In this document: positions 1,461 through 49,945 of the stretch, piece after piece
How positions within the stretch are numbered: position 1 is the first letter of the stretch
Layout: each line of letters starts with the position of its first letter
Assembly (NCBI RefSeq): GCF_054482595.1
Contig: NZ_CM137008.1
Strand: one strand, 5' to 3'
DNA length: 64,000 nucleotides
Notes under the pieces: model-generated
What the model was told of the DNA's origin: nothing
Databases searched by the model: none
Seen by the model: only the letters and a program-made list of their open reading frames with translations
Made by a program: the position numbers and the translations under genes

Positions 1461-1776
1461 TCTTTCCGCGTCTCATCTTTATCGGTGAGACGCACCCTCA
1501 AAATTTCTCCTTCACTCTATAGTCTTTTCGCTTTACTCCCGTTCATTCAACTTAAGTCTCCATATTTTTTACATTACTGCTATCTGTCAGACCTCCGTTT
1601 TTCTGTTGATAAAACACTCTTTTTGACGTTTTTACAGACTAATTGAGCGTGAAGTGTGCAAACGATAAAAGTGTGGGAAAAATTGTTTGACTTATAAGTC
1701 TCAGAAAGTAATATGTGCGCCACGCAGCGACGATGAGCGATAAACAAGTTCTTCGAAGCACTCGTAAGAGGCGTGT

Positions 1777-1869
1777 GGTGAGGTGGCCGAGAGGCTGAAG
1801 GCGCTCCCCTGCTAAGGGAGTATGCGGTCAAAAGCTGCATCCGGGGTTCGAATCCCCGCCTCACCGCCA
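1777..1869 (+). tRNA. serV: tRNA-Ser (anticodon GCU), long variable arm
   Basis: 93-nt sequence GGTGAGGTGGCCGAGAGG...CCTCACCGCCA with GCT anticodon loop. Confidence 0.93.
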
Positions 1870-1872
1870 TTT

Positions 1873-1949
1873 GCATCCGTAGCTCAGCTGGATAGAGTAC
1901 TCGGCTACGAACCGAGCGGTCGGAGGTTCGAATCCTCCCGGATGCACCA
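1873..1949 (+). tRNA. argV: tRNA-Arg (anticodon ACG), copy 1 of 4
   Basis: 77-nt GCATCCGTAGCTCAGCTGGATAGAGTACTCGGCTACGAACCGAG...GATGCACCA. Confidence 0.93.
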
Positions 1950-1974
1950 TATTCTCCGTAACTTTCAGCGATGA

Positions 1975-2084
1975 AGGTATGGAAGAGGTGGCGGTACTAA
2001 CCGCAGGCACCAGGGAGGATAACGTTGCTTTAGCAACGGCCCGAAGGGCGAGCCGCAAGGCGAGTAATCCTCCCGGATGCACCA
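1975..2084 (+). repeat. tRNA-Arg 3'-end-derived spacer repeat (copy 1)
   Basis: unit ...AGGCACCAGGGAGGATAACGTTGC...AATCCTCCCGGATGCACCA ends with a duplicate of the tRNA-Arg 3' acceptor/T-arm. Confidence 0.7.
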
Positions 2085-2148
2085 TCTCTTACTTGATACG
2101 GCTTTAGTAGCGGTATCAAAAAATCTGCAGTAAAGTAAGTTTCCCGAT

Positions 2149-2225
2149 GCATCCGTAGCTCAGCTGGATAGAGTACTCGGCTACGAACCGAGCGGTCGGA
2201 GGTTCGAATCCTCCCGGATGCACCA
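2149..2225 (+). tRNA. argY: tRNA-Arg (ACG), copy 2
   Basis: identical 77-nt tRNA-Arg sequence. Confidence 0.93.
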
Positions 2226-2287
2226 TCTCTTACTTGATATGGCTTTAGTAGCGGTATCAATATCAGCAGTAAAATAAATTTCCCGAT

Positions 2288-2364
2288 GCATCCGTAGCTC
2301 AGCTGGATAGAGTACTCGGCTACGAACCGAGCGGTCGGAGGTTCGAATCCTCCCGGATGCACCA
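2288..2364 (+). tRNA. argZ: tRNA-Arg (ACG), copy 3
   Basis: identical 77-nt tRNA-Arg sequence. Confidence 0.93.
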
Positions 2365-2394
2365 TATTCTCCGAAATCTTCAGCAATGAAGATA

Positions 2395-2499
2395 TCGAAG
2401 AGGTAGCGGAATTAACCGCAGGCACCAGGGAGGATAACGTTGCGCCAGCAACGGCCCGAAGGGCGAGCCGCAAGGCGAGTAATCCTCCCGGATGCACCA
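2395..2499 (+). repeat. tRNA-Arg 3'-end-derived spacer repeat (copy 2)
   Basis: near-identical to unit at 1975-2084. Confidence 0.7.
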
Positions 2500-2562
2500 T
2501 CTCTTACTTGATATGGCTTTAGTAGCGATATCAATATCAGCAGTAAAATAAATTTTCCCGAT

Positions 2563-2639
2563 GCATCCGTAGCTCAGCTGGATAGAGTACTCGGCTACGA
2601 ACCGAGCGGTCGGAGGTTCGAATCCTCCCGGATGCACCA
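2563..2639 (+). tRNA. argQ: tRNA-Arg (ACG), copy 4
   Basis: identical 77-nt tRNA-Arg sequence. Confidence 0.93.
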
Positions 2640-2688
2640 TATTCTCCGAAATCTTCAGCAATGAAGATATCGAAGAGGTAGCGGAATT

Positions 2689-2772
2689 AACCGCAGGCAC
2701 CAGGAAGGATAACGTTGCTTTAGCAACGGCCCGAAGGGCGAACGCCAGTGAGTCATCCTCCCGGATGCACCA
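2689..2772 (+). repeat. tRNA-Arg 3'-end-derived spacer repeat (copy 3, more diverged)
   Basis: third copy of GGATAACGTTGCTTTAGCAACGGCCCGAAGGGCGA...CCTCCCGGATGCACCA unit. Confidence 0.65.
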
Positions 2773-2919
2773 TCTTCTCCAAAAAATTTCCTTCAAAAAT
2801 ATCTCATTTCTAAATAACTACTTTATCCATTTCCTGAATTTTCTTCTCCTTCGCCATCAGCGACAAAATCAAGCAATTACGCTAAAGTAGCGTCATATTT
2901 TTCGACTTGCGAGAAGACC

Positions 2920-3486
2920 ATGTACGAGCGTTATGCAGGTTTAATTTTTGATATGGATGGCACAATCCTGGATACGGAGCCTACGCACCGTAAAGCGTGG
3001 CGCGAAGTATTAGGGCACTACGGTCTTCAGTACGATGTTCAGGCGATGATTGCGCTTAATGGATCGCCCACCTGGCGTATTGCTCAGGCAATTATTGAGC
3101 TGAATCAGGCCGATCTCGACCCGCATGCGTTAGCGCGTGAAAAAACAGAAGCAGTAAGAAGTATGCTACTGGATAGTGTCGAGCCGCTTCCTCTTGTTGA
3201 AGTGGTGAAAAGTTGGCATGGTCGTCGCCCAATGGCTGTAGGAACGGGGAGTGAAAGCGCCATCGCTGAGGCATTGCTGGCTCACCTGGGATTACGCCGT
3301 TATTTTGACGCCGTCGTCGCTGCCGATCACGTCCAACACCATAAACCTGCGCCAGACACATTTTTGTTGTGCGCGCAGCGTATGGGCGTGAAACCGACAC
3401 AGTGTGTGGTCTTTGAAGATGCCGATTTCGGTATTCAGGCGGCCCGTGCAGCAGGCATGGACGCTGTGGATGTTCGCTTGCTGTGA
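2920..3486 (+). CDS. yqaB: HAD-family sugar phosphatase YqaB
   Basis: 188-aa ORF with HAD motif FDMDGTILDTE; locus position next to arg tRNAs. Confidence 0.9.
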   Translation: MYERYAGLIFDMDGTILDTEPTHRKAWREVLGHYGLQYDVQAMIALNGSPTWRIAQAIIELNQADLDPHALAREKTEAVRSMLLDSVEPLPLVEVVKSWHGRRPMAVGTGSESAIAEALLAHLGLRRYFDAVVAADHVQHHKPAPDTFLLCAQRMGVKPTQCVVFEDADFGIQAARAAGMDAVDVRLL

Positions 3487-3956: not shown

Positions 3957-5540
<1,584 letters not shown>

Positions 5541-5544
5541 CAGA

Positions 5545-5621
5545 AAAGAAAAAGGCCACTCGTGAGTGGCCAAAATTTCATCTCTGAATTCAGGGATGAT
5601 GATAACAAATGCGCGTCTTTC
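5545..5621 (-). ncRNA. micA: MicA (SraD) small regulatory RNA
   Basis: reverse complement reads GAAAGACGCGCATTTGTTATCATCATCCCTGAATTCAGAGATGAAATTTTGGCCACTCACGAGTGGCCTTTTTCTT, in the gshA-luxS intergenic region. Confidence 0.9.
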
Positions 5622-49582: not shown

Positions 49583-49945
49583 TGGTGGAGCTGGCGGGAG
49601 TTGAACCCGCGTCCGAAATTCCTACGTCCTCGGTACTACATGCTTAGTCAGTCTTTACATTCGCTTGCCAGCTGCGGACGGACACGCCACTAACAAACTA
49701 GCCTGATTAAGTTTTAACGCTTCAACCCCAGGCAGGGCCTCCACGCGATCTCTTTTGGGTTTGACCTCTCTTGATCCCCGTCCTAAGAGCGGAGGCTAGG
49801 GAGAGAGGGCTCTAAGCAGGTTATTAAGCTGCTAAAGCGTAGTTTTCGTCGTTTGCGACTATTTTTTGCGGCTTTTTACGAGGCCAACCGCCCCTCGGCA
49901 TGCACCTTGGGTTTCGCAAATCCCGTCGAATCCAGAATCAGCCCC
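49583..49945 (-). ncRNA. ssrA: tmRNA (SsrA), 363 nt
   Basis: reverse complement begins GGGGCTGATTCTGGATTCGACGGG and ends ...GCGGGTTCAACTCCCGCCAGCTCCACCA. Confidence 0.97.

Follow-up and report, generated by a model that had tools for sequence, protein, structure and literature searches.

According to our analysis, the short tRNA-like repeats found between and behind the tRNA-Arg genes of the serV-argV-argY-argZ-argQ operon of E. coli are the 3' termini of three copies of one element, a truncated, short-type member of the RtT family which we call L, and which would leave the operon transcript as a small structured RNA in the course of tRNA processing; we regard this reading, identity and mechanism taken jointly, as probable. 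The RtT family was reportedly first described beside tyrosine tRNA genes (Bosl & Kersten 1991), L is a known kind of feature, and the finding is mostly ordinary. The locus lies in the window, the whole stretch of 64,000 nucleotides that was analysed, with csrA on one side and yqaB on the other, and it is in its entirety 100% identical to that of E. coli strain XH990. The layout in K-12 MG1655 is the same, and the spacers carry no annotation there. The operon is a well-known one in E. coli and for the window itself has little importance.

The initial annotation had reported four identical tRNA-Arg(ACG) genes, separated by spacers that each end in a copy of the tRNA 3' half. ARAGORN finds the four identical 77-nt genes (Table), the first of them beginning upstream of position 1975, where the array had been said to start. 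The 19-mer AATCCTCCCGGATGCACCA occurs seven times in the window at up to three mismatches (0.01 expected), four times within the tRNAs and three times outside them, exactly at 2066-2084 and 2481-2499 and with one mismatch at 2754-2772. The hairpin noticed before these copies, AACGTTGC-NNNN-GCAACG, indeed stands upstream of every extra tRNA 3' end, and adjoining it is a core, GCAACGGCCCGAAGGGCGA, which is present three times in the window against 0.15 expected. What is copied amounts to 19 of the 77 nt, that is the last quarter of the tRNA and not its half: the last T-loop bases, the 3' strands of the T and acceptor stems, the discriminator and CCA. Such a copy exists in two of the three inter-tRNA spacers; the spacer between argY and argZ lacks it, and the third copy belongs to the 3' trailer after the last tRNA. 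Neither do the copies close the spacers, each internal one being followed by a module of 63-64 nt, S, and only then by the next tRNA. The order of modules is therefore tRNA-L-S-tRNA-S-tRNA-L-S-tRNA-L', with L in the orientation of the tRNA genes and between promoter-like and terminator-like sites. The first S module has its own hairpin, TTGATAC...GTATCAA, and the position of the promoter-like site agrees with the published serV leader of 52-56 nt (PMC7049720). No other copy of the core was found in the 64-kb window near its other tRNA (34593) or tmRNA.

Table. Features of the serV-argVYZQ locus and of the predicted L1 fold (positions in the window)
Feature	Position	Strand	Evidence
Promoter-like site, TTGACT-16-TAATAT	1687-1714	+	consensus match only
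serV, tRNA-Ser(GCT)	1777-1869	+	ARAGORN; Rfam tRNA 56.8 bits; same layout in K-12
argV, tRNA-Arg(ACG) copy 1	1873-1949	+	ARAGORN, Rfam; four copies identical
L1, RtT-like module, 135 nt	1950-2084	+	Rfam RtT, tyrT alignment, fold, covariation
L1, 5' hairpins	1953-1986 and 1991-2004	+	predicted fold
L1, closing pseudo acceptor/T helix	2007-2020 with 2067-2080	+	predicted fold
L1, inner hairpins	2023-2038, 2039-2049, 2052-2061	+	predicted fold
L1, ACCA tail	2081-2084	+	predicted fold
S1, short spacer module, 64 nt, directly 5' of argY	2085-2148	+	
argY, tRNA-Arg(ACG) copy 2	2149-2225	+	ARAGORN, Rfam
S2, short spacer module alone, 62 nt, without L or tRNA fragment	2226-2287	+	
argZ, tRNA-Arg(ACG) copy 3	2288-2364	+	ARAGORN, Rfam
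L2, RtT-like module, 135 nt; pseudo 3' end 2481-2499	2365-2499	+	Rfam RtT, fold
S3, short spacer module, 63 nt	2500-2562	+	
argQ, tRNA-Arg(ACG) copy 4	2563-2639	+	ARAGORN, Rfam
L3 (L'), RtT-like module in 3' trailer, 133 nt	2640-2772	+	Rfam RtT, fold
Terminator-like hairpin and T run, after L3, before yqaB	2879-2903	+	consensus match only
yqaB	2920-3486	+	ORF list; K-12 annotation

Against the RtT model of Rfam (RF00391) the full-length scores are 29.1 bits (E 0.014) for L1, 26.9 for L2 and 22 for L3, all three copies of the window being below the Rfam gathering threshold of 45 bits. A local search with L1 gives 34.2 bits (E 2.6e-5) over model positions 46-130, a 5'-truncated match, and the arg copy of the E. 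coli reference genome reaches 31.5 bits. The E. coli elements fall below the gathering score because the 5' half of the model is missing from them, and being truncated in this way they are missed by standard annotation; a broader model would label them together with the relatives associated with 5S rRNA. The orthologous elements that follow tRNA-Arg(ACG) are above the threshold in Yersinia nurmii, with 70.8 bits, and in Serratia grimesii, with 62.3 bits, and so are the Lys- and Pro-associated elements and the ones associated with Arg(CCG) in Marinobacterium and Amphritea. The tyrT locus of K-12 holds four RtT units of 133-137 bits, to which the 3' ~75 nt of L can be aligned, each element terminating in the 3' end of its own tRNA. 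This alignment has a common core, AACGTTGC..GCAACGGCCCGAAGGGCGA..hairpin..GAGTAATCC, and the conserved stretches AACGUUGC..GCAACGGCCCGAAGGGCGAG..CGAGUAAUCC of L agree with the RtT consensus. The position is also that of the family: L begins just downstream of a tRNA gene, on the same strand, and ends in ~19 nt of that tRNA with CCA, and a closing helix formed with this end is found by the fold, by covariation and by a swap control (see below). A homologous core is labelled 'RtT RNA' in a Salmonella record. Judged by these features, L of E. coli is a truncated short-type member of the family, one which fails the formal Rfam score and carries the other sequence marks of RtT. Matches of Rfam 'Plastid-ycf2' and miRNA models were also returned, and we rejected them as spurious (antisense or sub-threshold, on a tRNA or on a helix of L).

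The predicted fold of L consists of 5' hairpins and of a 3' domain shut by the pseudo tRNA end (Table), and the minimum free energies of the whole modules stand at z -5.4, -6.4 and -4.4 against shuffled sequences for L1, L2 and L3, respectively. The third copy is more degenerate than the other two, with the pseudo end CATCCTCCCGGATGCACCA, a weakened closing helix and last hairpin, and z of -1.8 for its 3' domain alone. In the closing helix GCACC.AGGGAGGAU is paired with AUCCUCCCGG.AUGC and ACCA is left free, so in the modelled structure this helix mimics the acceptor and T stems of tRNA-Arg in their coaxial stacking. Where a tRNA would have its T loop, the helix surrounds three hairpins: AACGUUGC-N4-GCAACG, GCCC-GAA-GGGC and a small variable one that covaries. 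The fold of L persists when argV, L1 and S1 are folded together.

Covariation was followed in 18 distinct short-type arg elements from ten genera (Escherichia, Enterobacter, Hafnia, Phytobacter, Kosakonia, Brenneria, Pantoea, Klebsiella, Pragia and Citrobacter). Paired cells make up 87.4% in this set, against 34-48% when the partners are slid, and 20 pairs are changed on both sides, against 7-12 with slid partners; none of 500 shuffles reaches any of the observed covariation measures. The closing helix (helix 3) is paired at 94.8% over the 18 elements, with five compensated pairs, and it tracks changes of the tRNA itself: Hafnia has GGGAAGAU/AUCUUCC, and its GGAAG/CUUCC is present in tRNA and element alike. 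Helices 4 and 5 are invariant in sequence throughout the set, which points to a specific recognition site and not to mere pairing, and the invariant core, including AACGUUGC and CCCGAAGGG, suggests a specific binding partner. As for the strand, G-U pairs in helices 1 and 3 favour an RNA made on the tRNA strand, and for 13 of the 18 elements the sense strand gives the more stable fold (on average -53.2 kcal/mol, against -50.2 for the other strand), which is a weak preference.

We propose that L is a part of the serV-argVYZQ primary transcript, in which it would form a structured RNA module. Each real or pseudo CCA of the array is followed by an AU-rich stretch, UAUUCU or UCUCUU. In the published model of tRNA maturation (PMC2190699), RNase E cuts 1-3 nt past the encoded CCA, and RNase P cleavage and 3' exonuclease trimming come after it; RNase T/PH is needed for the 3' ends of tRNA-Arg2 (PMC3378859). 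From the AU-rich context after every CCA we infer that the RNase E cuts which free the tRNAs should also free L. The product would be an RNA of ~135 nt with its 3' end trimmed to CCA and protected like the end of a tRNA, a by-product equivalent to the rtT RNA of the tyrT operon, and a processed by-product RNA of this kind is what L most likely represents. The initial annotation had expected tRNA-half-like transcripts. This is a misnomer, as the RNA to be expected is the whole ~135-nt module, and a tRNA half is a piece of 30-40 nt cleaved from a tRNA or pre-tRNA, whereas the copies in question are separate 19-nt genomic sequences fused to sequence that is not tRNA. Its other suggestion, that the copies act as processing signals, is plausible, and it fits because each pseudo-end recreates the CCA and the AU-rich context of a real tRNA. 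The rtT RNA has been described as a by-product of tyrT processing, perhaps modulating the stringent response, and from Actinobacillus, Northern signals have been reported for RNAs of the RtT family that lie close to the tRNA genes for Asn and Lys (PMC4986893). A literature search by the names of the arg genes returned no paper on the arg spacers and no expression or processing data, and the core and the 19-mer, searched as literature text, matched tRNA-Arg oligonucleotides only.

The array is not invariant among strains; an invariant structure is what the initial annotation had named as speaking against its own idea. We took 59 complete E. coli genomes with full-length matches, in even steps down the BLAST ranking of a query made of two 1-kb flanks, and measured the distance from the serV end to the right flank; it ranges from 211 to 1035 bp in this sample, which is not phylogenetically independent and in which repeats may be collapsed in some assemblies. 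Arrays of 899-902 bp are found in 20 genomes, of 1034-1035 bp in 10, of 630-634 bp in nine, of 760-767 bp in seven, of 670-672 bp in four and of 733 bp in two, and lengths of 211, 352, 529, 595, 608, 624 and 870 bp in one genome each; even inside O157:H7 there are arrays of 670 and 529 bp. In the examples that were fetched the number of tRNA-Arg copies is 1, 2, 3 or 4, and every spacer, as well as the trailer, may have or lack L. The window and K-12 have four copies with the spacers LS,S,LS; other four-copy patterns among the fetched arrays are LS,LS,LS, then LS,S,S, then S,LS,LS and S,S,S, and the O157 type with four copies reads S,S,l*S, l* being a 40-nt partial L. Three copies are carried by O157:H7 MB41-1 and ETEC1738, two by AVS0542 and one by D1. 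About 15% of the sampled genomes have the length of ~631 bp that corresponds to S,S,S arrays, which lack internal L altogether. Each internal L stands between two copies of a 20-nt direct repeat, AATCCTCCCGGATGCACCAT, one at the tRNA end and the other at the pseudo-end, and where L is absent the junction is exactly tRNA...GCACCA-TCTCTT, from which the absence of L is best read as a deletion between these repeats. MLI108K3 lacks the trailer copy L' precisely; in three strains this copy is without its core, which was deleted between microhomologies of GCACCA, and in SWHEFF_69 it bears a 22-nt internal deletion.

At the DNA level, the 20-bp repeats and the identical 77-bp tRNA genes would drive deletion, duplication and conversion, and therefore the polymorphism between strains. 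The L-free spacers are probably the derived state, because other Enterobacteriaceae also carry L between arg genes. As L is often lost, any function which it has in E. coli should be weak or redundant, and the natural dispensability of individual copies argues against a strong one. The array is at the same time a natural deletion series, with 0-3 internal L units and 1-4 tRNA-Arg2 genes across strains, and offers material for effects of RtT on tRNA maturation, on tRNA-Arg2 dosage and on the stringent response; the dosage of tRNA-Arg2 influences editing by TadA (PMC13170351).

The proposal of the initial annotation, that the fragments are products of repeated unequal recombination, has to be divided in view of these data. 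The array itself does recombine, its copy number and unit composition varying with breakpoints in repeats. The fragments are, in our reading, the 3' ends of an ancient RtT-family element, conserved in sequence and present at this operon throughout Enterobacterales, and not the debris of crossing-over. Neutral debris, with partial 3' ends left by unequal crossing-over or slippage in spacers of no structure or function of their own, would agree with an array so polymorphic in its one to four tRNA copies and in the presence of L per spacer, with a trailer copy that is decayed in several strains and with internal spacers that commonly lack L. It would leave unexplained that one conserved core always accompanies the fragment, from Escherichia to Pragia, Hafnia, Brenneria and Pantoea, that six helices are kept by compensatory changes and that the same core stands behind four other tRNA species and 5S rRNA; moreover, a crossover of identical tRNA genes cannot yield a 19-nt end fused to unrelated sequence. 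We consider it unlikely for these reasons. An origin in integration, in which a mobile element entered the T-loop/3' region of a tRNA gene and was later reduced to ~135 bp, leaving attR-type scars, is a good deal less probable still. Direct repeats of ~20 bp do flank L and begin in the T loop, its loss is precise, and tRNA gene fragments are known to arise in general by site-specific integration (PMC9897764). On the other side, L has neither an integrase nor any conserved ORF within it or close by, three copies sit in a single operon, a strand complementary to the end is not expected on the 5' side of an att scar, and the core occurs with at least six different cognate ends, for which one att site cannot account. 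A blastn comparison with phages and plasmids returned mislabelled chromosomes and one unannotated 7-kb 'Salmonella phage' record, with no genuine carrier, and the scan of IMG/VR gave three contigs with Tyr- or Lys-type RtT, two of which have the match at the end of the locus beside host-like sequence, and otherwise chance matches in GC-rich coding DNA. The phage, plasmid and viral matches being chromosomal records, host flanks at contig edges or chance, we rejected the mobile-element origin.

Two more readings would see in L something other than a released by-product RNA. RtT is typed 'Cis-reg' in Rfam, units in other genera include intrinsic-terminator hairpins, and one paper has linked rtT-like sequences to attenuators and BIMEs (PMC2965389), so that a cis-acting signal, an attenuator/terminator or a REP-like DNA hairpin which tunes read-through of the array, might be thought of. 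In E. coli none of the hairpins of L has a U run after it on the sense strand, and the sole terminator-like site of that strand is situated downstream, at 2879-2893. With an internal terminator the tRNA genes beyond it would go unexpressed, yet they are expressed, because deletion of argYZQ lowers tRNA-Arg2 16-fold (PMC13170351); we hold such a role to be improbable, if slightly less so than the integration scar. The least credible of all, to which we give almost no weight, is that L encodes a small basic peptide analogous to Tpr, whose ORF is annotated within the tyrT RtT. There is a 42-aa ORF with ATG in L1, at 1979-2107, and the K-12 annotation places tpr inside rttR. The second and third copies have no start codon (ATCGAAG for ATGGAAG) and no equivalent ORF listed, and the variation of L follows RNA pairing and not codons; with the L1 ORF not conserved in L2 and L3, peptide coding was rejected.

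The RtT-family element with a tRNA-derived end, which we prefer, has a wider distribution. A scan for GCAACGNCCCGAAGGGNGA with one genome per species gave at least 120 loci. Of those listed, about 30 are either fortuitous hits in unrelated phyla or copies beside which no host RNA is recognisable; the remaining matches listed come from Enterobacterales, Orbaceae, Vibrionaceae and Oceanospirillales. Among the matches listed, the hosts standing just upstream are tRNA-Tyr, tRNA-Lys, tRNA-Arg(ACG), tRNA-Arg(CCG), tRNA-Pro and 5S rRNA, and every host-associated element listed terminates in the last 13-19 nt of the upstream RNA, a rule that holds for at least 71 elements behind Tyr, Lys, Pro and Arg genes. 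In the swap control the duplex energy of the upstream strand was calculated with 3' ends of its own class and of the others: it is -17.9 kcal/mol with its own and -10 to -15 with the others for Arg, -12.3 against -8 to -10 for Lys, and -18.5 against -8 to -14 for Tyr. The control is clear for these three classes and not clear for Pro, where sequences are few. The arg element of Yersinia has 23 nt of tRNA-Arg, from the 3' strand of the anticodon stem to base 5 of the T loop, directly 5' of the core, and the rest of the tRNA directly 3' of it, which gives the element the appearance of a tRNA 3' half whose T loop has taken up an insert of ~75 nt. Short Arg-type and short Lys-type elements have an identical junction, GGAT-AACGTTGC, and an identical core. 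The family could have originated by insertion into a tRNA copy, or by spread through recombination at the universal T-loop sequence. Several other genera have a terminator hairpin after the tRNA and before the element, which may therefore be poorly transcribed there.

We may even suggest, as a speculation that is rather unlikely and is to be weighed as a whole, that RtT-like elements are not a curiosity of tyrT and constitute a single modular family in Gammaproteobacteria whose members mimic the ends of stable RNAs, with a nearly invariant core of ~55 nt at the site of the T loop, a helix tailored to the host, a terminus that is always the 3' end of the host RNA, and an uncharged CCA end under selection. 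Its hosts would be tRNA-Tyr, Arg, Lys and Pro, 5S rRNA and possibly Ser; its RNA could be a decoy or a sensor for enzymes of the tRNA 3' end or for the stringent-response machinery, and its spread between stable-RNA operons could have gone through recombination at the universal T loop. If this is true, the matching of the helix to the host and the constancy of the core would imply selection for an RNA that offers a tRNA-like CCA end together with a site to which a conserved factor binds. The rule by which the element copies the terminal helix of its host sharpens in any case the long-open question of the role of RtT RNA.

It would be logical to compare L, before others, with RtT/rttR of the tyrT-tyrV operon, which likewise follows a tRNA gene immediately and within one transcription unit, repeats at its end the final ~19 nt of this tRNA with CCA, and has the same core (AACGnnGC..GCnACGrCCCGAAGGGyGA..hairpin..GAGTmATCC) and the same closing helix, in which the pseudo 3' end pairs with a strand upstream of it. 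The tyrT locus is arranged as tyrT-RtT-short spacer-tyrV-RtT x3 and shares with the arg operon the layout tRNA-RtT-short spacer-tRNA-RtT, although L is interleaved with tRNA genes and the tyrT RtT is repeated in tandem. The element of the arg operon is also shorter (~135 nt vs ~175 nt), and it lacks the first ~45 positions of the model and the hairpin derived from the T arm, having two unrelated 5' hairpins instead. Release from the primary transcript as a discrete stable RNA has been demonstrated for the rtT of tyrT only. The duplicated tRNA 3' ends left by integration (PMC9897764) are similar in forming a direct repeat with the intact gene; in L the repeats are separated by 115 nt of sequence that is conserved and structured and is not a mobile element, L is present in several copies per operon, and one core goes with many cognate ends. 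The long-type arg elements of Yersinia and Serratia share with L the position in the operon and the pseudo 3' end, and the one of Yersinia differs in being placed after a terminator hairpin and in keeping the 23 nt of tRNA-Arg before the core, a part which L of E. coli has lost. In the short Lys-type elements of Enterobacteriaceae the junction and core of L recur and the outer helix alone is refitted to tRNA-Lys. From outside the family, 3'ETS-leuZ reportedly is an sRNA sponge (Lalaouna et al. 2015), a spacer of a tRNA operon that is released by tRNA processing and persists as RNA; it has no sequence relation to L, and the two are alike in being a spacer or trailer of a tRNA operon.

The conserved hairpin segment of the RtT family (the core) was found by us directly behind 5S rRNA genes, as in Superficieibacter (locus L025, 80-218), and further loci from other genomes carry an RtT-like core right after 5S (L041, L044 from E. 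coli, L056, L058, L065 and L092). In an rrnD-like operon, for example, such a core separates 5S from tRNA-Thr. The 5S-associated element terminates in AACTGCCAGGCAT, the 3' terminus of 5S, and beyond it comes CAAAT(T/A)AAG, the same stretch that follows the real 5S end. The Rfam RtT model makes no call on the 5S-associated cores at its threshold.

Core copies are also present in Pectobacterium zantedeschiae (L038, 9722-9740; L039, 1080-1098), where gene calling places neither a tRNA nor an rRNA gene in the vicinity, and here the core is followed, in place of the tRNA 3' end, by a small hairpin and TCAT, together with a hairpin resembling an intrinsic terminator.

In arg arrays of O157 and other strains (L005, 560-661; L011-L014; L137) we observed a 40-nt partial copy of the long RtT-like module, TATTCTCCGTAATCATCAGTGATGATGGTTAAGATGGATTT, in which the first hairpin alone is retained and fused to the short spacer module S, giving a spacer of 101-102 nt that has neither core nor pseudo 3' end (the copy of the host RNA's own terminus). 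Within the window, the start codon of the ORF through the long module L1 is absent in modules L2 and L3, and the core search of the window detected no RtT-like core near the tmRNA gene or the CAT-anticodon tRNA.

Other features of the window
Feature	Position	Strand	Detail
42-aa ATG ORF through L1	1979-2107	+	
MicA sRNA	5550-5621	-	Rfam RF00078, 83.9 bits
tRNA, CAT anticodon	34593-34668	+	
tmRNA gene	49583-49945	-	tag ANDENYALAA

Two records labelled or predicted as viral contain RtT-like sequence. A Tyr-type RtT unit in IMG/VR contig 2660238126_000002 (L142, about 4570-4588) has its 5' side cut off within GCAGCGAGAGAGCG and abuts unrelated sequence near the end of this predicted viral contig; the breakpoint could mark a prophage junction that lies within the tyrT repeat region. 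The unannotated 7,356-bp record OR850888.1, 'Salmonella phage S.Kent 1-2-1', has an RtT-like core at 1444-1501 (match H92, 86% identity over 55 nt) and could be host DNA.

Lys-type RtT units occur in three to four tandem repeats in Klebsiella sp. (L028), Pantoea (L037) and Acerihabitans (L022). Since each unit opens with a strong intrinsic-terminator hairpin, AAAGGCGCCCTAAAGGCGCCTTTTT, every repeat duplicates the tRNA 3' end, the terminator and the core together.
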